Positions 856 through 58,881 of a DNA stretch of 64,000 nt are shown here, in pieces. The position numbers and the translations under genes are program-made. The notes under the pieces were generated by a model. The model was not told the origin of the DNA, did not search any database, and worked only from the letters and a program-made list of their open reading frames with translations. The stretch covers positions 133,791 to 197,790 of the forward strand of contig CAYVYK010000002.1 in NCBI GenBank assembly GCA_964455675.1. The letters are read 5' to 3'. Every line of letters starts with the position of its first letter. The first letter of the stretch is position 1. Source of the stretch: an uncultured Methanosarcinales archaeon. GTDB lineage: Archaea; Nanobdellota; Nanobdellia; Woesearchaeales; CAYVYK01.

Positions 856-1221
856 TCATTTGGTTTTCAGCGCGTCTTGGATCACATGCGAGTCCCATCC
901 AAGGCCGAGGAGCGATACGGTGATTTCCTGGTCGCTCTTGCCATGGATTCGCATGTTGGATATCTCTGTCCGAAGGACGTCGATAACTTCGTATTGCCTG
1001 ATGAGTTCTTCGGATTTCTGTTTTTTCTTGACGTCGTCCTTGCTCCAGAGTTTTATGTTGCCGCTATGTACCCACAAGAGCACGACCCCTCCGGCAACGA
1101 TCATAAGGATTATCATTCCATAAAAGAGCATGTTTCCGCCCGCTGAGTCGGTGCCGCTCATCCAGTACAAGAATGCTAAGATAGGAATGAGCAACCCAAT
1201 CAGGTAATATTTTTTATCCAT
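856..1221 (-). CDS. Small 2-TM membrane protein with conserved C-terminal 'GW' helical tail
   Basis: Two hydrophobic segments; ends ISNMRIHGKSDQEITVSLLGLGWDSHVIQDALKTK. Confidence 0.75.
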   Translation of the reverse strand: MDKKYYLIGLLIPILAFLYWMSGTDSAGGNMLFYGMIILMIVAGGVVLLWVHSGNIKLWSKDDVKKKQKSEELIRQYEVIDVLRTEISNMRIHGKSDQEITVSLLGLGWDSHVIQDALKTK

Positions 1222-1845: not shown

Positions 1846-2448
1846 CTAGATAAACAGCTTCACGAAAACAAGTGTGAAGAGCAGGCTGAGTACGACGATC
1901 GCAGCGATGAACCAGACCATGTTCTTGAATATTCTTGATGCCGCCTCTTGACTTATGGTATCGATCCGGTGGCCCATGTCCTCAAGCAGGTGGTTGTAGA
2001 AATTTACCATATTCTTGTTGAGGAGTGTCGTGTTCTTGTTGAGCGTATCAAGGTTTGTGAGCATTGTTCCAAGCCACTCTTTGTCCATCTTGGAAAGTGA
2101 TGTGATGACCTCGTTCAGCCGTTTGATCTCCTCTTGGAGCGCGTGCCGTTCCTGGGGCATGCCATCCATTGCTTGCTTGATCTGCAGGAACGCAGTTTTG
2201 AGGTCGCCCGCCCCCTGCATCATGCTTCGGCCGGTATTGGCTTGATTATTTCGTAGGTATTGCTCGAGCGCGTCAAGTTTTTGGATTGTATCAAGGAGCT
2301 GTTTCTTGATGAGCGCTTCTCCCGGTGTTATTGCGGCGTTCGGATCAGCAATAAGCTTCTGATTGAGAACTTCAATATTTGTCGCAAGGACGCGAATTTG
2401 CTCCTCAACGCCCGCTTCCACTGATACTTTTGATCCGAAAACCCCCAT
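1846..2448 (-). CDS. Coiled-coil protein with C-terminal TM anchor
   Basis: Heptad-rich body; hydrophobic C-terminus; divergent from the ATPase gene. Confidence 0.7.
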   Translation of the reverse strand: MGVFGSKVSVEAGVEEQIRVLATNIEVLNQKLIADPNAAITPGEALIKKQLLDTIQKLDALEQYLRNNQANTGRSMMQGAGDLKTAFLQIKQAMDGMPQERHALQEEIKRLNEVITSLSKMDKEWLGTMLTNLDTLNKNTTLLNKNMVNFYNHLLEDMGHRIDTISQEAASRIFKNMVWFIAAIVVLSLLFTLVFVKLFI

Positions 2449-2592: not shown

Positions 2593-4326
2593 GTGATAGG
2601 GGAAGAAGACCAGCTCCTGATGGTGGACTGTGAGGCATGTCCCTATGATATTCCCCAGATGAGTGCGATTGGCGTCAACCCAAAGTGCATCGATTGCCCA
2701 TTCATCAAGAAGAAAAGTTTTGACCGCCTCAGGCTGCGGAATAGATATTTTACCAAGGAATATTCTGAGGATCGCAGACTGCTGCATATCGAGCCGTTCT
2801 TTATCGACGTCCGTTTTGGTTTTGCGCATGGTAATTACAAGGTCGTTTCTGAATATACTGTGTCCACGGGCGCGCGCGTCCGCATCCTGCAAAAGCCTGC
2901 TGAGGTTGGGTACATCTATGAGATTAACATTCCCGAGATCAATGTCTCATTCAGTAAATTGTGGGATATGTTTAAGGAAGTTGAGGAATTTAAGGAGACT
3001 GGGGAGACGACAAACCAGATCATCAAGCGCTGGTACCTTGAGTACGGTATCCTTGAGCACCTTTTGTTTGATGATAAGGTCCTTGAGATCAACGTGAATC
3101 CTCCCGCGTACAAGACAGCCATTCGCATTGTGCATTCTGAGTTTGATGAATGCGTCTCAAATATTTATCCGACTCCTGAATTCACGAATTACATCAGTAC
3201 GAGATTGAAGATTTCGACGGGCCGTCCGCTGAACAAGGCCCAGCCCCAGCTTGATGGTGAGATTGTGATCGGCACGCACAAAGGTCGCGTCGCGGCGACG
3301 ATCGAGCCATTCAGCGTCTTTGGCACGGGCTTTTCCATTAGGAAGCATCGTGAACGCCCGTGGACTGTTCCCTTGTTCATGAAGAATGGCGCCGTGAATA
3401 ATTGGTTTGCTGGAATCATGTCGCTCGCGATCACGCAAGGTAGATCGTTCCTCTGCGCCGGTCCTCGCGGATCAGGAAAGACGGCGCTCCTTGGTTCCAT
3501 GCTCCTTGAGATTCTGCCAAAGTACAGAATTATCACGATTGAGGATACCCAGGAGCTTCCGATCGATTCATACAAGCAGATGGGTTATGATATCTTGCCG
3601 CTGAAGGTTCGCTCAGCGCTCCTTGAGCATGGTATGGAGATGCCTTTTGACATGGGCCTTCGTACGACGCTGCGCCTCGGTGATTCATGCCTCATCGTTG
3701 GTGAGGTACGCAGCAAGGAAGCTCGTGTCCTCTATGAGGCCATGCGCGTCGGCGCGATGAGTAACGTCGTCGCGGGTACGATCCACGGTGACTCTCCCTA
3801 TGGTGTATTTGACCGTGTCGTCAACGATCTTGGCGTCCCCGCAGGATCCTTTAAGGTCACAGACCTCATCATCATCGTGAACCAGATCAAGAGCCCTACA
3901 GCGCTGAAGCGCCTGAGGCGTGTGCTTTCAGTTACGGAAGTCTTGAAACGCTGGCAGAATCCGAATGAGCCGGAATTCCAGGACTTGCTTGTGTACGATC
4001 CGAATCGTGATGTGCTCGTGCCAACGGATGCGTTCCTGAACGGCCGCTCGGTGTTCGTCAATAATATTCTTGAGCGCGCATCTGGCTATGGCAGTTACCA
4101 AGCGGTGATCCAGGACATTATTCTGAGAGGCCGCTGCAAGGAAATGTTTGTGCAGAAAGCGAAGAGTCCTGAGCAGCTCGAGGCTCCCTATAATGCGCGG
4201 GCGAATGTTCTGTATGCCGTGCTGTCCGAGAAATACCAGCCGCTGAAGTCGCCTGAGAACACGGAGCGCTTCATGATGGCGTACAGCAAGATGTTGGATT
4301 TGCTGTTCTCGTACAGGCCTGGCTAA
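2593..4326 (+). CDS. Type II/IV secretion / type IV pilus assembly ATPase (VirB11/CpaF/ArlI family)
   Basis: Walker A GPRGSGKT, Asp box ITIEDTQEL, Walker B LIVGEVR, His box GTIHG. Confidence 0.92.
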   Translation: MIGEEDQLLMVDCEACPYDIPQMSAIGVNPKCIDCPFIKKKSFDRLRLRNRYFTKEYSEDRRLLHIEPFFIDVRFGFAHGNYKVVSEYTVSTGARVRILQKPAEVGYIYEINIPEINVSFSKLWDMFKEVEEFKETGETTNQIIKRWYLEYGILEHLLFDDKVLEINVNPPAYKTAIRIVHSEFDECVSNIYPTPEFTNYISTRLKISTGRPLNKAQPQLDGEIVIGTHKGRVAATIEPFSVFGTGFSIRKHRERPWTVPLFMKNGAVNNWFAGIMSLAITQGRSFLCAGPRGSGKTALLGSMLLEILPKYRIITIEDTQELPIDSYKQMGYDILPLKVRSALLEHGMEMPFDMGLRTTLRLGDSCLIVGEVRSKEARVLYEAMRVGAMSNVVAGTIHGDSPYGVFDRVVNDLGVPAGSFKVTDLIIIVNQIKSPTALKRLRRVLSVTEVLKRWQNPNEPEFQDLLVYDPNRDVLVPTDAFLNGRSVFVNNILERASGYGSYQAVIQDIILRGRCKEMFVQKAKSPEQLEAPYNARANVLYAVLSEKYQPLKSPENTERFMMAYSKMLDLLFSYRPG

Positions 4327-4327
4327 C

Positions 4328-6196
4328 ATGGAAAAGAATCCTCTCTACGAGTTTTTCAAGATTGTTCCTGTCGGCTTTACGATACCTTCCGTCGACGAGA
4401 AGATGAAGTTTGTGGAGTACCCGTATAGGAGTAAGGAGATCACTGCCGCGGCTCTTGGAATCCTGATTGCTTCCCTCATCCTCACGCTTGTTTCCCTCTC
4501 AATTCACATGTTCTTCGTGTACTTGTTCCTGTTTGTCGGCTTGATCCTTGCAGTGTCGGTGTACATTTACCCTACAGGCATTGTCTATTCGCAGCGCCTC
4601 ATCCAGTACTCAGAGGAAATGCTGAAAGCAACACTGCGGATTTCGACGTACATTCTCATGAACCAGAGCATGGAGTACGCGATTCTGAATACGAAGGATC
4701 AGCTTCGTGGAACCCTTCGCACGCAATTTGAGGATATCGCGAACCGCCTGCATCGGCGTAAGAATAATACCCTTGGCGAAGTCATGGAGATATATACGCC
4801 CATCTGGAATAAGCATAATCCTGACTTCGTGAAGTCGCTGCGCCTGCTTGAGACCGCAGCCATGTCGCCTGATGAGGATAAGAAGAAGATTATAGAGGAG
4901 ACGCTGCAGACCCTGATCATTGGATATCATACGGCAGGAAAAAGATTTGCAGAGGAGCTCGCGAACAACGCAAAGACGCTCATCGCGTTTGGAGTGCTCT
5001 TCCCGATTATTTCCCTTATGCTTCTCCCTCTCGTGAGTGTCTTTTTGCCAAACGTCCTCAATCCGACGCTGCTCGCGTTCGTCTATAATGTCATTTTTCC
5101 CGCGATAATTCTGCTCATGGCGCTAAACTTTTCATCGAGGCGTGTGCAGGTCGACACGATCAGCTTGAAGGAGAGTCCTCAGCATAAAAGTGTCCCGATC
5201 TATATCTATGCGATCGCGATAGGGATTGTGGCTGTCCTCATTGGCCCAGCGCTCATCCACTTGCTCACGATCAACACGGCGACAGTTAAAACTGTCGAGC
5301 GTGAGTACCTCCTTTGGTCTGTTATTAAGATATGGTTCTTCCCTCTAGGCATTGCTCTCGCGATCTGGCTCGTGTCAACCTATTACTATTACGCGAATCG
5401 CAAGCTCTGGCTCGAGGTCGATGAGACCGAGCGCGATGTTCCGCATCTTCTGCAGTCAATTTCCACGTACCTCACGCTTAACATGTCTTTTGAGCGCATC
5501 GTTCCTGCGACGATCGATGATTATGTCACGCACGGATTCAGCGGTCACCCAACGGTAAAGTTTTTCAAGATATTGAACCACAAGTTGTACGTCACGAAAA
5601 AGTCCATCGAGGAACTGACGAACACAGTCCTTCCCAAGATCTGCCCCTCGAAGAAATTGACGGACATTCTGTCTCAGATTATCTCTTTTACGAATATTTC
5701 TTTAGAGAGCGCTGCTGAGGCGGCTAGCCTCATTCGCAAGCAGACGATTCTCGTCTACGAGCTTGATGACTATATCAAGACAATGCTCTCGGATACTGTT
5801 GCATTGATTGGTGTCACAGTCAACTTCCTCGCGCCAGTGCTATGCGCTGCGGCCGTTCTGATGTCGCTTGCGATTGTGAAGGCATTAACGTACATTTCCG
5901 AGACCCTGTCGAGGATTCAGTCAGCGCTCGGGACGGAAGGAACGCCCATGCAGCTTGTCAAGATTACTGAAATTATTCCGCCCACAGTCATCGAGCTTAT
6001 TGTCTCTCTCTACCTGCTTGAGCTCATTATTGTTCTTTCGCTCTTCTTAAACAATGTCAAGGTAGGGAACGACACGTTTCAATTGACGAGCCAACTGCGC
6101 TCCAATATGCTTGGCTTTGCCCTATTCAGCATAATTCTGATCATCGGCCATTATGTGATTGTCGGCCTCCTGTTCGTTGGATTTGGCGGTGCTTGA
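4328..6196 (+). CDS. Type IV pilus membrane platform protein (TadC/ArlJ-like)
   Basis: Multi-TM protein with two large soluble loops, starting 1 nt after the ATPase stop. Confidence 0.75.
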   Translation: MEKNPLYEFFKIVPVGFTIPSVDEKMKFVEYPYRSKEITAAALGILIASLILTLVSLSIHMFFVYLFLFVGLILAVSVYIYPTGIVYSQRLIQYSEEMLKATLRISTYILMNQSMEYAILNTKDQLRGTLRTQFEDIANRLHRRKNNTLGEVMEIYTPIWNKHNPDFVKSLRLLETAAMSPDEDKKKIIEETLQTLIIGYHTAGKRFAEELANNAKTLIAFGVLFPIISLMLLPLVSVFLPNVLNPTLLAFVYNVIFPAIILLMALNFSSRRVQVDTISLKESPQHKSVPIYIYAIAIGIVAVLIGPALIHLLTINTATVKTVEREYLLWSVIKIWFFPLGIALAIWLVSTYYYYANRKLWLEVDETERDVPHLLQSISTYLTLNMSFERIVPATIDDYVTHGFSGHPTVKFFKILNHKLYVTKKSIEELTNTVLPKICPSKKLTDILSQIISFTNISLESAAEAASLIRKQTILVYELDDYIKTMLSDTVALIGVTVNFLAPVLCAAAVLMSLAIVKALTYISETLSRIQSALGTEGTPMQLVKITEIIPPTVIELIVSLYLLELIIVLSLFLNNVKVGNDTFQLTSQLRSNMLGFALFSIILIIGHYVIVGLLFVGFGGA

Positions 6197-12931: not shown

Positions 12932-13315
12932 TTGGAATTACCGATACAGGTAGCAGTTGTTCTGCTGGTTACGGTTGCGGTAGCGGGAGCAGTTGTGTAT
13001 TTCTCTACAAGTGTCATCAGCGATGCGCAAAAGGAGATTCAGGAACCCTGGAAAGAGGAAAATCCCGAGCTCGTCATTGAGGTTGCGGACATCACGGATA
13101 ACGGCCTCAAGATTCTCGTGGAAGAGTGTTATCAGAGGAATGAACAGGAAGCGCTTTCCAAGGAATTGTGTTTTGTGGTGCATGGCCAGGCAAACCATGT
13201 AACTTTGGTATCAGGAATGATTAGCGGCATCAATGTCGAAGTTATTAATCCAGTCGGCAACACGCTTTACGTGTACTATGATCCTGCCGGCAGCAAGATT
13301 CAGATTACGAGTTAA
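12932..13315 (+). CDS. Pilin-like protein
   Basis: TTG start after GGAGG; MELPIQVAVVLLVTVAVAG. Confidence 0.65.
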   Translation: MELPIQVAVVLLVTVAVAGAVVYFSTSVISDAQKEIQEPWKEENPELVIEVADITDNGLKILVEECYQRNEQEALSKELCFVVHGQANHVTLVSGMISGINVEVINPVGNTLYVYYDPAGSKIQITS

Positions 13316-13331
13316 GAAAAGAGGTGATTGG

Positions 13332-13994: not shown

Positions 13995-13996
13995 GC

Positions 13997-29873: not shown

Positions 29874-32800
29874 TTAGGTGCGCTTCAGTTGATCACGGAT
29901 CGCATCATCTGTCCACCCTGTACGGTGGAGCTCATCGCGAATGCTTTTTTCAGAAAATCCTCGGCTTCTCATCTTTCGCATATAGAGGTCAAGTTCTGAC
30001 ATGATCAGTTGATGTTCGATCTTTTCCGCCTTATGGCTATGGAATGCGATGACAAGAAGGATGATTGCTGCAAAGAGGCATAGACCAATTGCGGCAGGGA
30101 TGAGGTATACTGAAGTAGTTGACACTTCAATGACTGGAAGATTCCATGAGAGTGGCATCTGCTCGCATGGTGCAGGACAGCTCCCGCCGCAGTCAATACC
30201 TTCTTCATCTCCATCCTGAACTCCATTAATGCAGGTATCGGTTACGTTTCCTCCTGAACAGGACTGCCATTCAATTCGCACTTCGCCCCCGATTTGGCAG
30301 TGATTGGAGTCCGTGCATGTTCGAGTTTGGTTTCCATCAATGCACGTCGTCCACGAGGTGCATGTCCAATTGAATACACAGGTTGGTGTTGTGGTTGGTG
30401 TTGGGGGAATCCATCCTCCGATACCACCGCCTCCTCCGCCACCACTGCCGCCGCCGCCACTGTCATCGTCGCCATCTCCGCCAGGCGCTGGGCAGTCTGC
30501 AGGACATAGTGCATTGGTTTCTAAAGGATCACAAACCCCATTACCGCACAGGCAGTCTGCTGGACAGCTTGCGTGCGTTTCCGCGCCATTGCAGACATTG
30601 TCCCCGCACACGCTGCAGTCTTGCTCCGTTGCAGGCATTGCACCGCCGCATCCGCTCAGGTCTTGATATGACCTGTTCATCCATCCGTTCGAGCATGAAC
30701 TCCAAGGGAATAGGATGATGTCTGGATCGCATTCTGGAGGGATTATGGATGCTTCGTAGATATAGACCTCGTATGGTTCCTCGGTTCCTGGATGATCTGG
30801 AATAGTGATTGGTATCATGGATCCATGGAATCTTATCGTGACTTCTGTATGTTTGAGCGGATTGTCAATCGTAAAGAGATGAACGCCGTTCTTGTCGACA
30901 AACCGACGGATGTCCATGGTTTCGTCGCTGACAAAGGATATTCCTCGTGTATCGTAGTACCGAGGTTCCCGCTCCCACCATTCGAGCGCGTCCCATTGCT
31001 CGATGGTTCTGTTCATGATTTTATCAAGTACTGTTGGAGTATCATATCGGTCTTCAATGTGCCATGCGTCGAATTTTCCACCGAAGAGGAAAGCCTGGCG
31101 CTCGAGCCAGTACCAGCAGAGGTCTGGTTCCGGCGTGCAGTATGGTAAGAAGTAGTCCCATACAAGCGCGCGATTTGTACCAACCATTGTTTTCACGGTT
31201 CCCCAGAGGTAGTGATCCCAGTTGCTTTCACCAATGAACATGATTCTGTCATCGAAGAGGTATCTTCCAACATTGGGGAATGTGGTATTCTCATAATCAC
31301 CAGGAGAAATACCTGGACCCCCAAGGATCTGGTGGCTGTTTCCTTCAAATGATCCTCCGGTAAGATACGCAGTCGGATAGATATCCACGGGCCACTCGAT
31401 CACGTTTCCTTCGGGAAAGATGTGTGAAGGTGTTTGTGCAAGGAATTGCTGTGCCATCCAAAGCGGATCACCGAGGTAGACTGCTCCGACGACGTCGAGA
31501 TAGTAAGCGTTTGCGCCCCATTGTGTTGTGCGCTGCATCCACGTTTCTAGCCACTGCCGTGATGTTTCTGACGTTCCATCGTCAGGTGCAGTGATTGTTT
31601 GAGGATCATCAAGGGGTACATACTGGCTCGTGTATATCGGTCGTTGGTAGAAGCTGGCATGTCCTCCTTGATTTCGGACTGTCTGCATGAAGTCCAGTAG
31701 ATCGTCCGTCGTTTCTGATAAGTACCGCTCGTGGATGTGCCGGTTCATGAGGCAGCAGCCCGTACCAGGCGTATTGTCTTGGTAATAGTAATTTCTCCAG
31801 CCGCTCATCTGCCCCCACATTTGCACCATTGGAAGATAATCGTTCCAGAGGTCCCATCGCTGCAAAAGTTCCGCAGCGTCGAAGGGAACATCATTCAAAC
31901 TTGGATCTGCGGCTGGTTGGGGCATCATTTCAAGCGGTACATGGATCCACCCGTTTGCAGATTGCATCCAGCTAGGGTATTCAATCGGCCACAATCCCGC
32001 AGAGTTCATATTGGGAACGAGCCAACGTTTGTAATCGTCTGCTGCCGCTTGCCATGCAGCTATCCCGGCATTCATGTTATAATTCCGGATAAGAGCGGAG
32101 TATTGATAGGATGTCCCTACGTGGTGTGTGAAGTTGTACTGGAGTGCCATACGATTCTTTCGGTAGAGTGGAGTGACTGGTTTTGGAGGCCAGTTTTGAG
32201 CTGCAACCATTCGAGCTTTGTTCTCATTGTAATGGATGAGGATGGGCGCACTAACCTGTCCAGGGTACGTCGCGTTGAATCCCCTGACGCTTCCAAGCCA
32301 TTCATCGTCTAGATCTGCGACGCGATGTGCAATGCCGAGGCGTACCATCTGTATGATATTGCCCTCGCTTCCGTACGGATCAAGGATACGTTCATCCTCC
32401 TCGTATGGGAACCACACGGACCGGATGGGTACCTTTGGTGTGAGGGAAAGCGTATAAATTCCGTCACTTCCGCTGATTATCGCGGTTACATAGTCGTCGT
32501 CAAACTGTGCAGGAATGGTATCGGGAGAATATATGAGTGTATCCCGATTTTGTAGCATGATCTGGAATGATATGTCTCCCTCTGCGCAATCCTGCGGACA
32601 ATTGGCGAGCTTTTCGCCCTCGCCACAGAGGAGATCTCCGCAGTATGCGGGGCAATCATTCGGACAATTGCAGTTGGTTTCGTGCGGTTCGCAGTTTCCG
32701 TTTCCACACGCTGTACAGTAAAAGCTGCCGTCATAGTAATTGATGCATCCTGGTCGTGCAGGGAAGATAAGTTCCGTTTTCGTCAAGCCCGGAGCGCAGT

Positions 32801-35800
32801 TATCATTAAACCGTCGCTGTCCGAGCCCTCCATAAGGGATGTCAGGACAGTCAACTTCGCAATTGTTGTTGTTCTCACCGTCCACATACTCACAAGTTCC
32901 GTCTTCATCGCAGACATCGCAGCGAGTGGCTGGTCCAGTACATGGTCGCTCAAATTCGCACAGGATTTGGCCTGGAGGTGTAAACTCAAGATCTGTAATT
33001 TCGTATGGAGTGAACGTCACGATTTTATTCCCAACGTACACATCGTCACATGCTTGGTCTTTGATTCTCTCAGGGCCGCTGTTGATGAAATAGTTCTCGA
33101 TGAAATAATTCTTTTCGGATAAGTACATAGACCTCACTTCATACATTTGGGGATAGTAGCTTATCCGCATGTCATATGGTGTGCTCGTATAGATGGATTC
33201 GTATCTGCCGATGATGTTATGGTAAAAGGTGTGATTGACTTGGTTGTTTCGCAGTTCTACTTCCATGCCGTTGCTCTGGCACCAATAGTTCGTGAAGATG
33301 GGATATCCGTTTTCCGTGCGCAGGTATGGGTAATGCACAAAGCCCGGACGGTTATCCATGTAATCATCCTCGATGCTTTGCTGCGGGCTCCAGCAGTCAT
33401 AGTAATACGGCCGATCAAGTTTGTTGTTGTCTATGGCGATGTTATCGATGAGCGTGGCATTATAGGTGTAGCCATAGAGGTTTATTCCCACGAGGTGGTT
33501 TTCAAAGAACAGATTGTGGATAATGCGCACTCCTTGCGACGTTTCTACCCTCACGCCCGAGATATTCACATTCCGCGCAATGTTGTTGTAGATTGTCGCG
33601 TTAAACACGCATAACAGATTGATGCCCTGGTAGGTTCCCGAGAGATAATTGCCGCTGATCGTGATGTTCTCAAGCTTTCGCTCGCATGAGGGGAGTGCTG
33701 GGAAACGCGCCCCCCCGACGCGCAGCGTGTAGTAATTATTGTCAAAGAAGTAGTTGCCAGTGACATTGATGTGCTTGCTGGTATATGATGCGGTCGCGCT
33801 CACATAGAATGACCAGTCAAAGTTTATGAAGACAGAGTTTGATACTTCGAGGTTTCTGCCCCTCATGTAGAGACCGACATGGTCTTTGTCCTTGTCGCCA
33901 TAGAAGATGATGTTCTGGAATTTCACACCATTCCTCTCAAGTACTTCAATCATGTCATCTCCTATTCCATGAGCTTCAAGAATCACTTGGCCTAGCTCAC
34001 CGGATTTTATAATCACATTATCCTTATTGATGCTGGTGTATGTGCTAAGGTAGTATCTTCCTGGCGGTATCGTGATCACGCCTCCGCTCGGCGGCAGCGC
34101 TGCGATCATCGCCCGGAGTGTCGGCCCATAGTCCTCCCCGTCATTCCATGGTTGTTGTGATTCCCGCAGCGCGATGACGGTGTCCCTCATGTCCTCTTTC
34201 TGCTCAGCTTCTGCGAGTCGTTGCTCGATATAAACATCGACGGGACAGTCCGCCTCGCAGTTCCATGTTGTTTCTCCTACTTCGCATATGCCATCGCCGC
34301 ATTGCAGTGTGCAGTCGTGTGGGCATGAGGCATAATCTTCAGGATTGATACAGTACTCATCACCGCATACCGTGGGGCAATCAGCCTGGCACGTTTCGGG
34401 TGTTTCTGCGATGCTGCATATGGAATCTCCACATATCGGCTCGCAGTCTGTTGGGCACGTTGAGTGGGATTCAAATGCATCGCACACTCCATTCCCGCAG
34501 CCGCTGCTCCGTTCGATAATTACAATTCCAGGATTGGATTGGATATGGACATAGCTTGCCCCGTTCATCGTGACAATTTCCGTCGGAATGGGTGATGGAA
34601 CTCCATTCCATGCATAGGTATGAATAGTCATTCCGGACGTATCACCCCACCCAAAGTAACCCCGTTTGCTAGTAATTATCCTTGTGTCACCGATGATGGT
34701 ACCGTCATATATGGCGATTGGTGTGATGGGATATATCCTCTGATAAATGTCGCTTTGCTGATAGAGTTCGGATATATGCTGCGTACTAAAGTAGTGCAGA
34801 CCGCCAAAGTGCAGTGCGGCATGGATGTATCGTGAATCATCATTGACTTCATCAGTGTTGTAGATGATCGGGCTGGTCAGGTGCATTCGGGAAAGCGTGT
34901 TTGCGTAGTTGAGGCATCCCACTTCTCCAAATCGCTCGATTGGTAGAGCGCTGAATGATCGTGTTATAGGCGGATAGTTTGCAGCTGCGTTCAGATTTTC
35001 ACCAAGCAGTTCTGTGACATAGTTAACTCGATAATCATTGCTGAGAAGGATGATATTGCCGATTCTTTTGACTATTGCGCCCTCGACCGGATTGTTTTGG
35101 AAGCTATGGCCATCCCAATATTCTGGTGCATATGTGAATCGTGATATGGAGTGCGTTGACTCGTCAAAGTAGATTCCGTCGAGATTAAAGCGGTCGATGT
35201 ACTCTGTCTTGAATTCCTGCATCTTCTGCCCGAAGCTGTTCGTTGTTGTGGGAAAATATCCATATACTCCTGTTGTGTATGCGGCATGTTCTCCTTGTTC
35301 ATTGATGATTTTAGAGTCGGGATACTGTTCGGTATCCGTCTCTGACGAGAGGAAGAGGTCAATATACAGTAATTGCTTGATATCAAGTCCGGTTTCATCT
35401 ACCTTTCCGATAAAAATATTCTGTATGAAGCTTGCAATGTCAGCGGGAACTTCAGGTTCCCAGAGCGCTGGTCCATGCCTGCTGCTTGATGGTTGTGATA
35501 GCGCTTGCTCGGTGGAAAGACTGTCAAAGAGAAGAGTCCGTTCGGGTATCTCCTTGTTCGCCCAGGAGTTTGGAGACGGGTATCCAAGTGCAACCATGTT
35601 TTGGATAGGATAGTTGAAGTTGATGTGGTATCGCAGGACGTTGATGAAGTCGTAGTAGTCTGGGCTTGATAGCGGATAGATTTCCCAAACGACTGTGTAT
35701 GTGTCCTGTGCGCCAAGCCCAAAGTATTCGTTGTTAATGCGCATGAAACGGTCCCATAAGTTAGGGTTCCTTCCCCCTCCAACCTGGGTCCGAAAGACAT

Positions 35801-38402
35801 CATCTTTCACGTATATTCCTAGTCCTGCGTTTGAGAATGAAACAAATGTTGTTGGATTCCCCGGATCAATGGTTGATGCATTGGGATATCCTGAGTAGTA
35901 ATAGTTGAGCCATGGTGCTTGCGCGTTGACGTCGATGTAGAAAGGGATTCCCACATCTTCTGACATCTTGTTTGTGATCCTGTCCTCTACGCTGATTCGG
36001 TCTGTGAGGATGTCGATCGTTCGTTCAATCCTGTAGTAGGTTCCTTCGCCAATGACAGTTCGATGATTCTCATCACCAGTGATGGTCACAGCCCATGTTG
36101 GTTCAGCACTGCCAGGTATTGGATTTCCGAGATGGTTTCTTGGATGGGCGGCCTCGATCCGCGGGTGATAGTAGTACGAGTCAAGATGCACGGTGTTTCC
36201 GTTGACAGTGATTGTTATTCTCCCGTTATCGCTAACGGATAGAGAGTACGGAACTGGGAACTCATACTCTGGCCGGATGATTCCGGCATCATCATCTTGC
36301 AGTCCGTCCTCATCGGAATCAGAATCGAGTGGATCGTTATGGCTGAGGTACTCGTCATAGTTGTGCATCTCGTCACCGTCGGGATCATCAGTAAATCCGT
36401 AGATGAGAGATCCGAAGCTGCTGAGCTCCCAGTTGTCAGGAAGACCATCTATATCGACATCAATGTCGGAAGGACAGCAGTCCTGGATGCAGGTAAACTC
36501 ATCTTCTCCTGATTCGCATATGCCATTGCCGCATATTGATGACATCCCTGAGCCCACTTGTCGTGTCAAGGAAGTGATATCCCCAACATAATCGTTCCTA
36601 ATGGTGAGAGTTACTGTATATGTTCCGGGATTTGCATACAGATGGCTAATGATCATTCCGCTCCCTTGCGTTCCATCTCCAAAATCCCATTCGTATTCGA
36701 GGATGGGTCCGCGTCCGGGGGTGCTTTCTGACGCATCAAACAATACCTCATGGGTCTCACTCACCGTTGCACTAAATGATGCTCTTAGATCGCCAAGACG
36801 CTGCTCAACAATGAGACTTTTCCAGTCCTCCATCGTCAATCCGTTCTGATAGTCGAGGGTGTTCTCACGCACGTCAGAGTAGGTGTAGAACATGAGGTTT
36901 TTTGCCCCAAGCCATTTGTGAAGGTTAATCTCTTGGCGCATTTCCTCTGCCGTTGGCAGGCGAAAATCTCCCCATTCAAACGCCTGCACCACAGGTTCGA
37001 TGTCGATTCCGTCTGGTGCAGAGTACTGAGCGACTGTTGCGTAATTGTTTTCGATGCGTTCAGGATAGCTTCCGCCGACTCTCCATGGGTACACGTACAT
37101 GGCAAGCTGATCCTGATGTGTGTAATCCACGGTACCCGGAAGCAACCATAGAGACTCGGCAAGCATTGACGATCCAATAGCGTAAATAATTGGGCGGGTA
37201 GTGTCAGCGTCATACGCGCGTACGACACTTTCCACGATCTGTGCAAGGCCTCGATAGTCTGTCTCAAAATAAAACGCTGGTGGATCGTCGATAGAGTAAT
37301 ATGCTAAGATCGCATCCTTGATTGTATCTTGGGATAAATATTCCATCTCTTCTATGAGACGTTCCTTGTTCACGGGAACGCTGCCGATCGCGTGCGTTTC
37401 GGGTGCTGTACCCTCGCATCCGCGGATGACGTTCGAAAACGTGAACCGATAGTATGTGGAACCATGCGCTGAGAATGGTTCCGCTTCCGGCAAGATGGAA
37501 AACTGCATGCACTCATCATCAAGCCACAGGGTTTTGTACGAGGGATCGTCATACTGCGAGTTGATGAACCATCCAAATGTTGTGCTTGCCTTACCAATAA
37601 ATGATAGGGTGGTTGCTGTGTCGCTAATGTCCTCCTCGAGGACTCCGCCATGGTATGGTAAGGTTACCCATAGTTTCTGTTTGTTTGCGCGCAGTGTCTG
37701 TCCTGACACGTGTGTTGGGTCGAGCATTTCCCTGCTGTTTCCTGGGTCATAGAATTGCAGCCCAGTAAACCCATACTCCGCTGCGTTGTTGGAGCACTCG
37801 GCCATTCGTTCATATGGCTCGCCTCCCTCCGCGCATTCGTCCATCGTGAATATCCCTTTGTATCCCCAAATGTACGGAGGACAGTCTTCCGGACAGTTCA
37901 AGTGGTCTTCATCCTTGTCGCACGCTCCGTTGCCGCACATCTCCCCATCCATGATGGTTAGGTCTTCATTTTCCGGGGGTTCCTCGTCATTGCGAGGATT
38001 GTCCTCAATACGCTCGCACTCCTGTGTCTCGGTTCGTTGCTCGGATCGTAGTCCACAGTATGTTGTGCTCACGCAGAATCGTTCTTGAATTCCGTTAACA
38101 CATTCTCCCCATTCATCACATGTGTCACTCCGCGCGCAGTCGAGGCACTCCCTGCGTTCCACAGGCTTAAACACGCTGCTTTCGCAGCTATTCACATCCT
38201 TGCATTCGCGGAACTGCATCGTTTTCTCGCACGCTGTCCAGTCGGTGCATACCCATCGTTCCTGGCATGATGTCGCATAGTCCCGGGTATCCTTTACTGA
38301 CATTGCGGCAGGCGCAAAGGTTGTGCATGATCCGATAATGAGAAGGGCAAGGAAGCCTATCAGTGCAACTACAAACGCTCTGCCATTCCCCCTATGCTTC
38401 AT
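29874..38402 (-). CDS. Giant (2842 aa) membrane-anchored surface protein: Cys-rich linkers, PKD domain, beta-helix, several putative glycoside-hydrolase-like domains
   Basis: Signal peptide; many CGxGxC...CPxDC repeats; PKD YEWDFGDG..HLYANPGTYTVTLT; DxDGD Ca-binding motifs; beta-helix after GGVITIPPGRY; C-terminal TM and 'GW' tail. Confidence 0.85.
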   Translation of the reverse strand: MKHRGNGRAFVVALIGFLALLIIGSCTTFAPAAMSVKDTRDYATSCQERWVCTDWTACEKTMQFRECKDVNSCESSVFKPVERRECLDCARSDTCDEWGECVNGIQERFCVSTTYCGLRSEQRTETQECERIEDNPRNDEEPPENEDLTIMDGEMCGNGACDKDEDHLNCPEDCPPYIWGYKGIFTMDECAEGGEPYERMAECSNNAAEYGFTGLQFYDPGNSREMLDPTHVSGQTLRANKQKLWVTLPYHGGVLEEDISDTATTLSFIGKASTTFGWFINSQYDDPSYKTLWLDDECMQFSILPEAEPFSAHGSTYYRFTFSNVIRGCEGTAPETHAIGSVPVNKERLIEEMEYLSQDTIKDAILAYYSIDDPPAFYFETDYRGLAQIVESVVRAYDADTTRPIIYAIGSSMLAESLWLLPGTVDYTHQDQLAMYVYPWRVGGSYPERIENNYATVAQYSAPDGIDIEPVVQAFEWGDFRLPTAEEMRQEINLHKWLGAKNLMFYTYSDVRENTLDYQNGLTMEDWKSLIVEQRLGDLRASFSATVSETHEVLFDASESTPGRGPILEYEWDFGDGTQGSGMIISHLYANPGTYTVTLTIRNDYVGDITSLTRQVGSGMSSICGNGICESGEDEFTCIQDCCPSDIDVDIDGLPDNWELSSFGSLIYGFTDDPDGDEMHNYDEYLSHNDPLDSDSDEDGLQDDDAGIIRPEYEFPVPYSLSVSDNGRITITVNGNTVHLDSYYYHPRIEAAHPRNHLGNPIPGSAEPTWAVTITGDENHRTVIGEGTYYRIERTIDILTDRISVEDRITNKMSEDVGIPFYIDVNAQAPWLNYYYSGYPNASTIDPGNPTTFVSFSNAGLGIYVKDDVFRTQVGGGRNPNLWDRFMRINNEYFGLGAQDTYTVVWEIYPLSSPDYYDFINVLRYHINFNYPIQNMVALGYPSPNSWANKEIPERTLLFDSLSTEQALSQPSSSRHGPALWEPEVPADIASFIQNIFIGKVDETGLDIKQLLYIDLFLSSETDTEQYPDSKIINEQGEHAAYTTGVYGYFPTTTNSFGQKMQEFKTEYIDRFNLDGIYFDESTHSISRFTYAPEYWDGHSFQNNPVEGAIVKRIGNIILLSNDYRVNYVTELLGENLNAAANYPPITRSFSALPIERFGEVGCLNYANTLSRMHLTSPIIYNTDEVNDDSRYIHAALHFGGLHYFSTQHISELYQQSDIYQRIYPITPIAIYDGTIIGDTRIITSKRGYFGWGDTSGMTIHTYAWNGVPSPIPTEIVTMNGASYVHIQSNPGIVIIERSSGCGNGVCDAFESHSTCPTDCEPICGDSICSIAETPETCQADCPTVCGDEYCINPEDYASCPHDCTLQCGDGICEVGETTWNCEADCPVDVYIEQRLAEAEQKEDMRDTVIALRESQQPWNDGEDYGPTLRAMIAALPPSGGVITIPPGRYYLSTYTSINKDNVIIKSGELGQVILEAHGIGDDMIEVLERNGVKFQNIIFYGDKDKDHVGLYMRGRNLEVSNSVFINFDWSFYVSATASYTSKHINVTGNYFFDNNYYTLRVGGARFPALPSCERKLENITISGNYLSGTYQGINLLCVFNATIYNNIARNVNISGVRVETSQGVRIIHNLFFENHLVGINLYGYTYNATLIDNIAIDNNKLDRPYYYDCWSPQQSIEDDYMDNRPGFVHYPYLRTENGYPIFTNYWCQSNGMEVELRNNQVNHTFYHNIIGRYESIYTSTPYDMRISYYPQMYEVRSMYLSEKNYFIENYFINSGPERIKDQACDDVYVGNKIVTFTPYEITDLEFTPPGQILCEFERPCTGPATRCDVCDEDGTCEYVDGENNNNCEVDCPDIPYGGLGQRRFNDNCAPGLTKTELIFPARPGCINYYDGSFYCTACGNGNCEPHETNCNCPNDCPAYCGDLLCGEGEKLANCPQDCAEGDISFQIMLQNRDTLIYSPDTIPAQFDDDYVTAIISGSDGIYTLSLTPKVPIRSVWFPYEEDERILDPYGSEGNIIQMVRLGIAHRVADLDDEWLGSVRGFNATYPGQVSAPILIHYNENKARMVAAQNWPPKPVTPLYRKNRMALQYNFTHHVGTSYQYSALIRNYNMNAGIAAWQAAADDYKRWLVPNMNSAGLWPIEYPSWMQSANGWIHVPLEMMPQPAADPSLNDVPFDAAELLQRWDLWNDYLPMVQMWGQMSGWRNYYYQDNTPGTGCCLMNRHIHERYLSETTDDLLDFMQTVRNQGGHASFYQRPIYTSQYVPLDDPQTITAPDDGTSETSRQWLETWMQRTTQWGANAYYLDVVGAVYLGDPLWMAQQFLAQTPSHIFPEGNVIEWPVDIYPTAYLTGGSFEGNSHQILGGPGISPGDYENTTFPNVGRYLFDDRIMFIGESNWDHYLWGTVKTMVGTNRALVWDYFLPYCTPEPDLCWYWLERQAFLFGGKFDAWHIEDRYDTPTVLDKIMNRTIEQWDALEWWEREPRYYDTRGISFVSDETMDIRRFVDKNGVHLFTIDNPLKHTEVTIRFHGSMIPITIPDHPGTEEPYEVYIYEASIIPPECDPDIILFPWSSCSNGWMNRSYQDLSGCGGAMPATEQDCSVCGDNVCNGAETHASCPADCLCGNGVCDPLETNALCPADCPAPGGDGDDDSGGGGSGGGGGGGIGGWIPPTPTTTPTCVFNWTCTSWTTCIDGNQTRTCTDSNHCQIGGEVRIEWQSCSGGNVTDTCINGVQDGDEEGIDCGGSCPAPCEQMPLSWNLPVIEVSTTSVYLIPAAIGLCLFAAIILLVIAFHSHKAEKIEHQLIMSELDLYMRKMRSRGFSEKSIRDELHRTGWTDDAIRDQLKRT

Positions 38403-54209: not shown

Positions 54210-54763
54210 TGATGATGGCACGGAAAAAAGCGAAAAAAAGTGATGATGATCTCCTGAATTTGCCAAAGGACGAGGGCGTGGCGATGCGCGCATCGATATG
54301 GAGAAGGATCGCGGCAGTGATCATTGATCTGTTTCTTGTCTATGGGCTAGGTTCTGCAGTGTTATCGCTCCTCCCGATTACAAAGCAGATTCAAAGTGAT
54401 ATTCCAAAGAATGCGACTTTTCTGCAGCTTCAGGACCATTTTCTGAGCAATCCTGATCTCGTCCAGTGGTCGACGGCAATGACAATCCTCTTCTCCGCGC
54501 TCTTCCTGCTCTATTTTTCCATCGCAGAGTTCAAGTTTGGTCAGACTGTGGGAAAGAACATTCTGAATATCAGGATCGAAGCGATTGCAGGAAAGCTCTC
54601 GCTTGGAAAGTGTATGGTGCGAAGCTTGTGGAGCGTTGTCTTCGTTCCGGTCTATCTCTTATGGATCATCGACATCATGTATATGTTCTTTAACAAGGAC
54701 CAGCAGAGGCTCCTTGAGAAATTGAGCAAAACAAGGACCATCCAGAAGGTGCGTATCACATGA
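54209..54763 (+). CDS. RDD family membrane protein
   Basis: ASIWRRIAAVIID, GQTVGKNILNIRI, QQRLLEKLSKT. Confidence 0.9.
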   Translation: MMMARKKAKKSDDDLLNLPKDEGVAMRASIWRRIAAVIIDLFLVYGLGSAVLSLLPITKQIQSDIPKNATFLQLQDHFLSNPDLVQWSTAMTILFSALFLLYFSIAEFKFGQTVGKNILNIRIEAIAGKLSLGKCMVRSLWSVVFVPVYLLWIIDIMYMFFNKDQQRLLEKLSKTRTIQKVRIT

Positions 54764-57700
54764 AAAAGCTCTCCATCGCAGTGCTGCTCGCAGTGCTTGT
54801 AGCCAGCGTTGCGATCTATTCAGAGAGCAATGGTACAAACGAGTCGGGGAACTGGAGTAACAGCTCTTTTGGATTACCAAACATCGAACCTACCGAACTG
54901 CCCGATGTTATCATCACTCCGAGGGCTATCCTCACACCAGAACCTGATATTCCTCCGACAAGTGTGGAAGTTGAGGAGATTGCCGCGTTATCTGAAGAGG
55001 ACGAATATGTGCAAGTGACGATCTGGCTTGATGAGTCCGATCGCGCGCTGAATTCACCAACAGAGATTCAACAGGCGACGGAAAATGTGCTGTCCGCGAT
55101 GGATGCTCGCGCGCTTGTTGATCTGAAGAACGCGATTCTGACAGAGAATGAAGAGGGAATGATGCTTTCCGCTACCTCCCTGCCTGATTTTGTTGTGACA
55201 AATTCGTATTCTCACTTGCCAGCGGTCTCCGGCCTCATCCGGGCGTCGATGCTTGACGAGATTGGAAACCTTCCTGGCGTTGATAGCGTGATGCCCTCGG
55301 AGAGAGTGTATGCGAGCCTCGTTCAAAGTAATCCTATGATAAACGCGACGCTCGCGAATATGATAGAGGTCGGAACGACGAACATTACGGGCGCTCAAGT
55401 TGCCGTGTGCGTTCTTGACACGGGTGTCCGCTCGGATCACGCGTACCTTGGCGGGAGGGTGATCGCTGAGAAGTGTTATCTCACGAGCAGCGAATGCCCG
55501 AATGATCTGACGGAGGATGATGACGCAACCGATGATCACGGGCACGGTACGCATGTGGCTGGGATCATCGCATCGGAATCTACGACCTATAAGGGTGTTG
55601 CTCCTGCTGTGAATATTGTTGCAGTGAAGGTCTTGAACTCTGCTGGTAGTGGAATTGGCTCTGATGTCATATCAGGTATTGATTACTGCATTGCCCAGAA
55701 GAATGTGTATAACATCACCGCAATCGTGATGAGTCTTGGTAGTGCTCACATGTTTGCGACGGAAGCCGAATGCGATCCAAATTCTGCCACTGCTCGTGCG
55801 GCAAATGATGCGCACGTTGCGGGCATCTTTGTTGTGGCTGCTGCAGGTAATTATGGTAACGCAAGCGGAGTTTCCCCTCCTGCGTGCGGTACGAATGTGA
55901 CAGCAGTTGGGGCAGTGTATGATTTTACGGCCACATCGATCATAACATATACCCTGGCATCCTGCACGGATGATGCAGAGACAAAGGGTAATGTGACATG
56001 TTTTTCAAATAGCGCTCCAGCCCTTGACCTCCTCGCGCCTGGCGCGAACATCACTAGTTCTTGGTACACGAGTACATCTGCCATCGGGCGTGTTGCGGGA
56101 ACGTCGCAGGCAGCGCCGCATGTTGCTGCCGCGGGTGCTCTTCTAGCCCAGTATGGTAGGCTCTACAGTGGTCGCAACCTCACGCCTAGTGAGATCAAGC
56201 AGGCGCTGATTGATGGCGGTGTTGACTATACCGATCCGAGAAACAGCATTGAGACCCCGATCCTGAATGTCTATCAAGCAATGCAGATGATTAATGATGG
56301 CGTCGCTGTCAATGTGACATACCCAATTACGACGGGTAATAGGCTAGTCACAAACCATTCCTGGACAATTGTGAATGTAAGCACGTCAGATCGCGCATCA
56401 GAGGTTGTCCTGCAGGTATGGTCTAATCCAAATAATGTAAGAAACATGACCATGCGGAAACTGAATGACACGAGGTTTACGATTAACATTTCTCGCAATG
56501 CGACGAATTATTCAAGGCTCGGCCTTGAGCGTCTCTCCCTGAACATATCAAAGGGCTGGGACACGAACGATTACGTTGTGGATTATATCAACGCGACAGC
56601 GATCAGCACGAACGCTCTTGGCATCGTGAATCACTCCTCAAGCTTCCGGATATACCTTGAGAACAGGAACTTCACGAACCTCTCATACCTTCCAGCGGGC
56701 AACACATCCACGGATGAAGGGTTGAATGTCACATTCAATGTCACGTTTTATGATTATCACGCCATGAATACTACGCTGCTCCTGATTGTCGACGGTGACA
56801 TTGTATCTCGCTTTGGGCATGATTCATATCAAGGAGGCGTTCATGTACAGAATGTAACACTAGGCAACTGGAGCGAGATGTGCTCTCTGAATTTCAGCGT
56901 CCCAAGGATTAACCGCACGTATGACATGTTCAACGCTACGTGGAATAACGCGACGGTGAATGTTGCGGGATATGGTAATTACACGTTCTACCGCAATAGT
57001 GAGATCCAGTTTATGGGCTGCCAGGTACGCGTGCAGAACTTCTCGAACGTGTCAGGTGTGCACAAAGTTGAGTTTTGGTATCGCGAGGGCGCGTTCAGCA
57101 CCGAGGCTAATTTCAGCGATAATAGCGCAAATTATCATAATGTTTCTGTAAATTATACCGATGGAGAATATTCATTCCTCATCAATTGGACGGTCCTTGT
57201 GAATGAGAGCAATGATATCCCTGATGTGAGTAATGTGAATATCACGAGCGGCACAAGGGGAAATTATTCAAATGGGTCCATCCGCTGCAATTTTTCATTC
57301 ATTGACAATGATTATGATAGCACAACGCCAATGAATGAGACACGGTGGTATAAGAATAACGTGAGCCAGGCGTGGACGAACGTGAGCACGATTCTTGCGG
57401 GAAATCTTTCAAAGTATGATGTCTGGATCTGCTCGGTGCGGGTGCATGATGATTATGACTGGAGTAATTTCACGAACGGTTCGATCACGATAAGGAATGC
57501 GCCTCCAACAAGGGAACTGATCGACGACTATTTCATGCCGAGGGGTACGAACCGGACGAATGTGATTAACCTTTCCGAGTACTTCACGGATATTGACAAC
57601 GCGACGCTGAACTTCAGCGCAAGGACAAACACGTCAATCAACAATTTCACGGTGATCTTGCGGGGCGCGAATGTCTCATTCAATACGAGTCACAGGTTTG

Positions 57701-58881
57701 CGGGCAGCGTCCGAGTGACGTTTAATGCATCTGATGAGTCGTCGTGGGTTACCGATGTCATTATTGTTAAAGCGTATTACTGCGGTGATGACGAGTGCGA
57801 CCCAGCCGAGAGCTCCTCGAATTGCGAGGAGGACTGCGGCTCGAGTGATGATGACAGTTCTGGCGGTGATGATGACGATGGGGGAGGCGGCCTTCCTGGT
57901 GGAACGACGACGCCTTCGCTTGCTTCAGAGGTTGTCCAGATTGCGTCCATTGCCGCTGGTGCAACAGGGAATTTCCGGTTTGTCTCAACGAGCCTCCCAA
58001 TCACGAATATCCAGGTACGCGTAAAGACTGCTGTGGAGGAACCAAAGATAACAGTAAAACAGGTTGATCCAGCATCGCTTGGAACAATGATGCTCTCAAC
58101 ACTTGCGGGAGGAACGTATCAGTATCTCGACATGTCCGCGGTGAAGCTGACGTCAACAAACATTGACACGGTCACGATCGATTTCAAGATCCCGCGCTCC
58201 TGGTTCCAGGGTTACATCGAGAATTCTCTTGTGATGAAGCGATACGTGAACAGTCAGTGGGTTGACCTTCCGACGACGAAGGTTGCGACAGAGTCAACGT
58301 GGGCCCACTACCGTGCGACATCCCCGGGATTCTCGATTTTCGCGCTCTATGCGCAAAAGCCTGAAATTATGCTGACGGCATCCCCATCGCAAAATCTGAC
58401 ATTGAACGCCACGCAGAATCTCACAAATCAGTCCACCCCAACGCCTACTCCGACAGAAACGCCGCCAGCGGATGCGACGCAAAGCAGGGGGAGCGGAATT
58501 GTGGGAAAGGTCATTGCTCTTATTCTCGTGCTATGTGCAGTAGGTCTTGGTGTATTTATCTATCTCCATAAGAGGAAAAAGCCTATTGGACAGAAAAAGG
58601 AAGAAACCCCTGAGCGTTCTGAGATCATGAGCACAGTCTCGGAATTCGTGAAGGAAAGAAAGCAGAAGAGGGAGATAGTTAAGGAGGAGAAAAAGCACCA
58701 AGAAATAGTCTCCTCAGTTGCGGAGCCTGCTGACACGTCGTTCGAGAATCTTCCAGAGGTGCTGAGATTCGTCGCCAAAATGCGCAGCAATGGAGAGTCC
58801 GATACAGTAATTCGAAAGAAACTGATTGATGCAGGTTGGCCTGAGAAACTGGTGACGAGGGCATTATCAAAGCAGAAGTAA
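54760..58881 (+). CDS. Membrane-anchored subtilisin-like S8 protease with PGF-pre-PGF-like domain
   Basis: Triad VLDTG / HGTHVAG / GTSQAAPHV; N-x-S/T-rich Ig-like region; YQYL..FKIPRSW..ATSPGFSIFA; TM and 'GW' tail. Confidence 0.92.
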   Translation: MKKLSIAVLLAVLVASVAIYSESNGTNESGNWSNSSFGLPNIEPTELPDVIITPRAILTPEPDIPPTSVEVEEIAALSEEDEYVQVTIWLDESDRALNSPTEIQQATENVLSAMDARALVDLKNAILTENEEGMMLSATSLPDFVVTNSYSHLPAVSGLIRASMLDEIGNLPGVDSVMPSERVYASLVQSNPMINATLANMIEVGTTNITGAQVAVCVLDTGVRSDHAYLGGRVIAEKCYLTSSECPNDLTEDDDATDDHGHGTHVAGIIASESTTYKGVAPAVNIVAVKVLNSAGSGIGSDVISGIDYCIAQKNVYNITAIVMSLGSAHMFATEAECDPNSATARAANDAHVAGIFVVAAAGNYGNASGVSPPACGTNVTAVGAVYDFTATSIITYTLASCTDDAETKGNVTCFSNSAPALDLLAPGANITSSWYTSTSAIGRVAGTSQAAPHVAAAGALLAQYGRLYSGRNLTPSEIKQALIDGGVDYTDPRNSIETPILNVYQAMQMINDGVAVNVTYPITTGNRLVTNHSWTIVNVSTSDRASEVVLQVWSNPNNVRNMTMRKLNDTRFTINISRNATNYSRLGLERLSLNISKGWDTNDYVVDYINATAISTNALGIVNHSSSFRIYLENRNFTNLSYLPAGNTSTDEGLNVTFNVTFYDYHAMNTTLLLIVDGDIVSRFGHDSYQGGVHVQNVTLGNWSEMCSLNFSVPRINRTYDMFNATWNNATVNVAGYGNYTFYRNSEIQFMGCQVRVQNFSNVSGVHKVEFWYREGAFSTEANFSDNSANYHNVSVNYTDGEYSFLINWTVLVNESNDIPDVSNVNITSGTRGNYSNGSIRCNFSFIDNDYDSTTPMNETRWYKNNVSQAWTNVSTILAGNLSKYDVWICSVRVHDDYDWSNFTNGSITIRNAPPTRELIDDYFMPRGTNRTNVINLSEYFTDIDNATLNFSARTNTSINNFTVILRGANVSFNTSHRFAGSVRVTFNASDESSWVTDVIIVKAYYCGDDECDPAESSSNCEEDCGSSDDDSSGGDDDDGGGGLPGGTTTPSLASEVVQIASIAAGATGNFRFVSTSLPITNIQVRVKTAVEEPKITVKQVDPASLGTMMLSTLAGGTYQYLDMSAVKLTSTNIDTVTIDFKIPRSWFQGYIENSLVMKRYVNSQWVDLPTTKVATESTWAHYRATSPGFSIFALYAQKPEIMLTASPSQNLTLNATQNLTNQSTPTPTPTETPPADATQSRGSGIVGKVIALILVLCAVGLGVFIYLHKRKKPIGQKKEETPERSEIMSTVSEFVKERKQKREIVKEEKKHQEIVSSVAEPADTSFENLPEVLRFVAKMRSNGESDTVIRKKLIDAGWPEKLVTRALSKQK

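Follow-up and report, generated by a model that had tools for sequence, protein, structure and literature searches.

A small three-helix domain predicted to lie just inside the membrane is common to giant surface proteins, surface proteases and a pilus-motor-associated coiled-coil protein of Woesearchaeota-type archaea

Introduction

Several described modules resemble, in placement or in size, the protein tails that are the subject of this work. Archaeal sorting signals of the PGF-CTERM class, which are recognised by archaeosortases, consist of a signature motif, a transmembrane (TM) helix and a short basic cluster; they end a few residues past the TM helix and are cleaved. With the tails analysed here they share the position at the C-terminus of surface proteins and the succession of a TM helix and basic residues, whereas here a folded domain is carried on a tail that extends 47-111 aa past the TM helix. 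UBA domains, which are marked by an MGF/MGY loop, and the UBA-like modules (UBA PF00627, UBA_6, CUE, RuvA_C) are similar in size, in their helix-turn-helix-turn-helix order and in the glycine at each turn. The N-terminal domain of the membrane-anchored protein Pex14 is also a small three-helix bundle and, according to the titles of its PDB entries (5aon, 3ff5, 2w84), forms part of a docking complex and is shown bound to Pex5. However, Pex14 is eukaryotic and the sequence identity amounts to 11-16%, so that it provides a functional analogy only.

The closest described fold appears to be that of RecX. According to the excerpted text of PMC2500204, RecX is a tandem of three bundles, each of three helices and about 50 aa, the RecX repeat resembles the helix-turn-helix (HTH) of homeodomains, and the protein acts on the RecA filament via basic residues of its concave face and binds DNA in vitro. 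The domain described below is modelled as a three-helix bundle of similar length (about 45-50 aa) and is likewise capable of forming tandem arrays; RecX provides the best structural matches to the model, at scores that are generic for small helical models, and weak sequence matches to RecX occur in its relatives. RecX itself, however, is soluble, bacterial and contains exactly three repeats, whereas the present domain is archaeal, membrane-proximal and nearly neutral in charge, and occurs as a single copy per protein in the genome studied here.

The starting point was a stretch of 64,000 nt (the window). In the original prediction, three unrelated membrane-anchored proteins encoded in the window were proposed to end in a common small helical tag, probably cytoplasmic, for the docking or sorting of surface enzymes, perhaps at host-contact sites; the 121-aa protein, which comprises little more than the tag, was put forward as a possible adaptor. 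Here we compare this module with the described systems and follow it through the genome to which the window belongs (G000; 1.72 Mb in 25 contigs, searched as 22,748 six-frame open reading frames), through related genomes and through public protein collections.

Results

Three homologous tails in the window

The C-terminal tails of the 121-aa, 2842-aa and 1373-aa proteins (Table 1) constitute a homologous domain of about 40 aa, as judged by alignment and hidden Markov model (HMM) comparison. Over the last ~45 residues the three tails are pairwise 28-29% identical, and nine columns (M, R, G, S, I, L, G, W, L) are invariant among them. In a hydropathy scan each tail is preceded by a hydrophobic segment, from which it is separated by a K/R-containing linker of 21-65 aa; the linker of the 1373-aa protease is rich in K, R and E. 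Both large proteins follow the same layout of an N-terminal hydrophobic segment, a long ectodomain, a single TM helix, the linker and the tail. Thus, a tail common to three otherwise unrelated membrane proteins, located at the C-terminal end after a TM helix and basic residues, was found as had been predicted.

Table 1. Coordinates of features in the window and elsewhere in genome G000 (positions refer to the window unless a contig is named)
Feature	Position	Strand	Remarks
1812-aa S8 subtilase, N-terminal 286 aa	2..859	-	ATG 859-857; rest beyond the left edge of the window
121-aa membrane protein	856..1221	-	two predicted TM helices (aa 6-24, 31-49), long linker helix, tail domain
Tail domain of the 121-aa protein (aa 79-120)	862..987	-	HMM match
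200-aa coiled-coil protein	1849-2448	-	C-terminal TM helix (tail-anchored); neighbour of the 121-aa gene
577-aa short-form type-IV-pilus-type ATPase (T2SSE) and 622-aa 10-TM putative platform protein	2593..6196	+	context
2842-aa surface protein with PKD and beta-helix domains	29874..38402	-	N-terminal hydrophobic segment, one C-terminal TM helix
Tail domain of the 2842-aa protein	29877..30005	-	21 aa past its TM helix (about 30048-30104)
1772-aa protein	48891-54209	+	MopE-type metal-binding motifs, alpha/beta-hydrolase domain
RDD-family membrane protein	54164-54763	+
1373-aa Peptidase_S8 surface protease	54760..58881	+	PF00082, E 2.7e-39; N-terminal hydrophobic segment, one C-terminal TM helix
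Tail domain of the 1373-aa protease	58750..58878	+	65 aa past its TM helix (about 58510-58566)
C-terminal end of the 1812-aa subtilase	G000:C2 from 129214		TM helix, 111-aa tail, divergent domain copy
ABC-transporter ATPase	G000:C2:41043-42323 (L007)		no predicted TM helix; N-terminal copy
213-aa soluble coiled-coil carrier	G000:C11:45112-45753	-	no predicted TM helix; best-conserved domain copy, near the N-terminus
RadA	G000:C11 (L010) 13195-14241	-	0.6 kb from the 327-aa N-terminal carrier
Long pilus-type ATPase and platform protein	G000:C7 62000-80000 (L032)
Coiled-coil carrier and three 5-TM paralogues	G000:C11 38000-56000 (L010)
Carriers with a C-terminal copy after a TM helix			3479, 2842, 2539, about 1812, 1373, 474, 265 and 121 aa
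Carriers with an N-terminal copy before TM helices			328, 249, 207, 161 and 150 aa

Copies elsewhere in the genome

In a word-based search the 121-aa protein retrieved itself as the sole match. The HMM built on the three tails alone, by contrast with its reversed-frame control (best E 0.25), detected four additional proteins of the same genome at E 1.7e-9 to 4.9e-4. Thus, the similarity of the three tails exceeds chance. Iterated searching of the genome with this HMM converged at eight members. A broader HMM, derived from 258 domain instances of 132 public proteins and independent of our own alignment, identified 14 proteins at E<=1e-4 and two marginal ones at E 0.01 and 0.39, the best match among reversed frames having an E-value of 4.2. 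The copy number of three, as originally given, was therefore an underestimate. The C-terminal location holds for the three window proteins, but the domain also occurs at the N-terminus of small membrane proteins and on two proteins devoid of TM helices (Table 1).

Every carrier in the genome contains a single copy of the domain; in the anchored proteins this copy lies, according to the hydropathy scan, 15-65 aa from the TM helix. The 2539-aa carrier is a stop-to-stop reading frame that measures 2484 aa from its first Met. The about 1812-aa carrier represents the marginal match at E 0.01; in its divergent copy GH replaces GW. The presence of a copy at the N-terminus of an ABC-transporter ATPase is consistent with a cytoplasmic location of the domain.

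In a crude census of C-terminally anchored candidates, 6 of 49 were found to carry the domain, among them all four of the largest (3474, 2842, 2484 and 1825 aa), and the smaller candidates mostly finish in short basic tails. With 6 of 49 candidates the domain is no general tag of surface proteins. The size trend fits a role that is tied to very large surface proteins.

Neighbourhood of the window genes

The stop codon of the 121-aa gene overlaps the start codon of the 1812-aa subtilase gene as ATGA (window 856-859), which suggests that both genes are co-transcribed and translationally coupled. The product of the latter is a Peptidase_S8/PKD protein (PF00082, E 3.8e-41). Similarly, the gene of an RDD-family membrane protein overlaps the start of the 1373-aa protease gene (54760) by four bases, and these two genes are therefore probably co-transcribed. 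In the 1772-aa protein encoded just upstream of this protease the tail domain was not found by any HMM.

The short ATPase and its putative platform protein are encoded on the strand opposite to the 121-aa gene, 1.4 kb away. The 622-aa platform protein has no Pfam match and is homologous to the protein encoded beside the long form of the ATPase (see below). Orthologues of the short ATPase are present in only 3 of 40 relatives (G029, G037, G040), as against 39 of 40 for the long form, and among the matches listed there is no domain match on the contigs of these three orthologues. The proximity of the 121-aa gene to the short ATPase as a meaningful arrangement is thus unsupported.

The neighbouring 200-aa coiled-coil protein has neither a match in the 40 relatives nor a Pfam match. 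Its first residues are similar to those with which the proteins of the coiled-coil carrier family (see below) begin. The idea that the 121-aa and the 200-aa proteins represent a split version of this carrier was dropped, given an hhalign probability of 1% (E 0.054) and the missing counterparts of the 200-aa protein in the relatives.

Fold of the domain

AlphaFold2 modelling on a 12-sequence domain alignment (A2) resulted in three helices (positions 2-18, 23-32 and 37-45) with a mean pLDDT of 90.2. When the full 121-aa protein was modelled without an alignment (mean pLDDT 73.6; helices 4-21, 27-52, 61-92, 97-106 and 111-119), a TM hairpin and a long helix led into the same three-helix unit. The small and helical nature of the tail was thereby borne out. 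The family consensus reads L..YI......G(Y/F/H)S...I(R/K)..L...GW....(I/V)...L, and the conserved positions belong mainly to the hydrophobic core and the turn glycines.

A Foldseek search of the PDB with the modelled bundle returned nothing at E<=0.001; its weak rows included the RecX entry 3dfg (E 7.4). A Cpl-7 CW_7 repeat (32% identity over 37 columns, E 3.5) was rejected, as this entry is a cell-wall-binding module and does not fit the cytoplasmic placement. In a VIA-align comparison with 48,161 chains the best match was RecX 3e3v (Z 6.0, rmsd 1.7 over 46 residues), and further RecX chains (3d5l, 3c1d and 3dfg) were obtained at Z 5.6, 5.4 and 5.1, respectively, together with the Rpa2 winged helix (Z 5.8) and the Pex14 N-terminal domain (Z 5.3-5.7). 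Because, according to the note of the tool, Z 5-6 (below 8) is the generic range for small helical models, the assignment stops at the fold class, for which the model indicates a right-handed three-helix bundle of HTH-like or UBA-like type.

Comparison with known families

No Pfam model reached its cut-off on the window tails, the best being DUF7626 (E 8.4e-4, 19.5 bits as compared to 27 required), and no NCBIfam model fitted at threshold. In line with the original expectation, the tail is thus not a known domain as far as both collections are concerned, and the literature searched contained no description of the module. Among described modules the RecX repeat and UBA-like domains come closest, although neither reaches threshold. 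Multi-copy relatives gave recurrent weak matches to RecX_HTH1/2, UBA, UBA_6, RuvA_C, DUF494, RepB_primase_C and DUF7626; a few of these sum past the cut-off, and in almost all of them no single stretch passes it. A profile search of PDB sequences yielded repeat proteins, designed helical proteins, CBL UBA chains (E 0.037-0.14) and RecX (E 0.075). In a protein atlas search with the domain alone, scores were at most 0.87 and the matches were without names or taxa.

With regard to RecX, the models PF21982, PF02631 and PF21981 did not match the three window proteins even at E<=10, nor the other carriers of the genome at E<=0.01. In relatives, the NCBIfam RecX model (PRK00117) scored 17-29 bits against cut-offs of 146-351, and some multi-repeat relatives exceed the 26-bit Pfam RecX cut-off only by their summed repeats. 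The carriers of the genome do not have three tandem repeats in one elongated soluble protein. A RadA gene lies close to one of the N-terminal carriers (Table 1), an adjacency that deserves mention because RecX, which gives the best fold matches, binds RecA; a RadA homologue is absent from the 16-18-kb clusters of the four relatives inspected.

The tails do not conform to an archaeosortase-type sorting signal either: a PGF motif was not seen before the TM helices of the 2842-aa protein and the 1373-aa protease.

Placement in public proteins

When 1.84 billion cluster representatives were searched with the profile, 3027 of them matched at E<=1e-3, and 159 did so at E<=1e-10. Placement was counted in the best 150 of the 3027 public clusters, with TM helices and topology called by a simple hydropathy scan and not by a trained predictor. 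All copies are located after the last TM helix in 103 of the 150 proteins, of which 60 have an N-terminal hydrophobic segment and one TM helix, 34 one TM helix only and nine several. In 15 of the 150 all copies precede the first TM helix; the remainder comprises 26 proteins with no predicted TM helix, four with copies on both sides of TM helices and two without a domain call. The final copy ends not more than 10 aa from the C-terminus in 87 of the 103. Within 15 aa of the flanking TM helix, K+R residues are more numerous on the side of the domain in 76 of 118 proteins and less numerous in 13. The ectodomains on such tails (beta-helix/NosD, PKD, Ig-like, CBM96, laminin-G) are typical surface modules.

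The domain is therefore on the predicted cytoplasmic side, near the membrane: it follows type-I anchors or precedes first TM helices, the K+R bias points the same way, and one copy is fused to an ABC ATPase. Both the cytoplasmic placement and the enrichment of matches at post-TM termini, which had been proposed as a check of the original prediction, agree with these counts.

Among the 148 proteins of the best 150 that have a domain call, 139 contain 2-9 copies, the usual tandem array consisting of two or three. This list was ranked by summed score and hence favours multi-copy proteins and arrays. It also includes false positives, e.g. DotG-like decapeptide-repeat proteins (P0139, P0052), and proteins of the window's own genome, at least P0128.

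Distribution in the lineage

The A2 profile matches 39 of 41 genomes of the window's order, each relative having been taken from a different family. A domain match (E<=1e-4) was obtained in 139 of 151 sampled genomes of the phylum, all of which belong to the window's own class; the split is 109 of 116 for the same order and 29 of 34 for other orders of the class. Bacterial-type domains are found on some of the top public matches, namely BlaR1 M56 (P0072) and DKNYY (P0041, P0086), and hint at a range wider than this class. Related loci mostly come from records titled Candidatus Woesearchaeota or Nanoarchaeota. The Woesearchaeota-type coiled-coil carrier is encoded on many public contigs whose title reads 'uncultured Methanosarcinales archaeon' (L034, L036, L037, L042 and others), and on one with the title 'Candidatus Aminicenantes bacterium'; all of these appear to be mislabelled bins.

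A coiled-coil carrier in a pilus-type motor gene cluster

In the 213-aa coiled-coil carrier, detected by the 258-instance HMM at E 6.9e-6, a short motif at the N-terminus is followed by the domain, a linker rich in P and Q, and a C-terminal region that is helical and conserved. Members of its family (alignment A3) occur in 41 of 41 genomes of the order, and an atlas search placed the carrier in Nanobdellota/Woesearchaeota clusters. In 23 of 40 relatives it is encoded on the same contig as the long (~760-aa) T2SSE-type ATPase at a distance of less than 5 kb; in one relative both genes share a contig 20 kb apart, in 15, mostly fragmented assemblies, they are on different contigs, and in one the ATPase was not found. 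Of 80 public loci, 55 have the ATPase within 4 kb upstream in divergent orientation (45 of the 59 with full flanks), and a 5-TM paralogue is present in the 4-kb flanks of 66. All four relatives inspected have the same gene order, i.e. platform protein and ATPase, followed in divergent orientation by a small protein, the carrier and three 5-TM paralogues. One carrier of the domain thus belongs to a pilus-type motor gene cluster. In the window's own genome the cluster is split between contigs C7 and C11 (Table 1), with the ATPase and the carrier both away from contig ends. Complex prediction for A3 with A2 gave 'no answer' (score 0.00) and weighs neither way on binding.

Discussion

Because the domain is common to surface proteins and to a helper protein of a pilus-type motor, it is probably an internal docking handle. 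We infer that the domain binds protein, and on our best explanation, to which we assign a probability of about 0.55, the tails belong to an undescribed family of three-helix domains of ~40 aa that are membrane-proximal inside the cell and serve in protein-protein docking. In Woesearchaeota-type DPANN archaea this domain sits on the predicted inner side of the cytoplasmic membrane: it ends the largest of their type-I surface proteins, which are adhesin-like giants and S8 proteases, it opens small membrane proteins, and it is part of the conserved soluble coiled-coil protein of the pilus-type motor cluster. The handle would link membrane proteins that are otherwise unrelated, either with one another or with a single cytoplasmic partner common to all, and the most concrete candidate for such a hub is the machine of pilus type or the coiled-coil protein accessory to it. 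Of the original interpretation this retains a small, helical, cytoplasmic and TM-adjacent module without a known family. Counting against the explanation, the carrier and the ATPase of the window's own genome are on separate contigs (C11 and C7), as they are in 15 of the 40 relatives.

In a more far-reaching form, the domain would be the inside handle of an archaeal surface-to-motor coupling, with adhesins and proteases docking on the coiled-coil accessory protein or on the motor, which we consider unlikely. One cytoplasmic ATPase complex could in that case position, cluster or pull host-contact proteins, functionally comparable to the coupling of adhesins to motors or of integrins to adaptors. 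To our knowledge, no comparable surface-to-motor coupling has been described for archaea.

The tandem arrays in public proteins raise the question whether the domain associates with itself. Repeats would pack in the manner of RecX, whose three repeats are packed in tandem according to the excerpted text of PMC2500204, and single-copy tails would pair in trans and thereby cluster surface proteins, the 121-aa and the coiled-coil proteins optionally acting as bridges. The 2-9 copies in 139 of 148 public proteins, next to the single copy in every carrier of the window's genome, argue for this possibility, which we regard as a tentative one; the share of arrays is, however, inflated by the multi-copy bias of the best-150 list. 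Self-association would moreover overlap with the docking explanation, with which it is compatible. If the domain were instead a partnerless knob that fixes the N-out/C-in topology of long load-bearing proteins and resists their extraction from the membrane, its presence on all four of the largest anchored proteins as compared to 6 of 49 overall, and its distance of only 15-65 aa from the TM helix, would be readily understood. Such a passive anchor leaves the N-terminal copies on small multi-pass proteins, on the ABC ATPase and on the soluble coiled-coil protein unexplained, as well as arrays of up to nine copies, and appears improbable.

Each of the two fold types to which the bundle was likened suggests a function of its own. 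An HTH in this place would anchor DNA or RNA at the membrane or make the tails membrane-bound regulators; the three-helix topology is HTH-like, many of the weak fold matches are DNA-binding domains, and the RecX repeat, itself similar to the homeodomain HTH, comes from a protein that binds DNA in vitro (PMC2500204, excerpted text). Nevertheless, a basic recognition helix with a positive DNA-facing surface was not found. The third helix is net acidic to neutral (-0.32 to +0.19 per column at positions 32-41 of the 258 instances), the mean net charge of the whole domain is +0.8 in the same set, the best-conserved copy, that of the coiled-coil protein, contains two basic and five acidic residues by letter count, and conservation resides mainly in the core and the turn glycines. 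We therefore judge nucleic-acid binding to be as improbable as a passive anchor.

As a UBA-type reader, the domain would recognise a ubiquitin-like modifier of the SAMP/Urm1 type by which membrane proteins are marked for turnover. Matches to UBA, UBA_6, CUE and RuvA_C in relatives, a few of them above the cut-off and the others below it, the CBL UBA chains found with the A2 profile and the G-(Y/F/H)-S loop after helix 1, which recalls the MGF/MGY loop, speak for such a reader. The window tails, however, lack a match to any UBA-type model even at E<=10, and the invariant GW turn is, as far as we know, not a UBA feature, so that this function seems very far-fetched.

DPANN archaea live attached to host cells.

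Judged from the sequences, the tails appear to define a new domain family that is widespread in this lineage and that has been left without a family model despite thousands of public protein clusters; defining it would improve genome annotation. A single 40-aa domain could also serve as bait for the internal partner. A single cytoplasmic module common to the largest adhesin-like proteins, to surface proteases and to an accessory protein of a pilus-type motor would provide a concrete handle on how the huge surface proteins of DPANN archaea are organised, anchored and controlled from inside.
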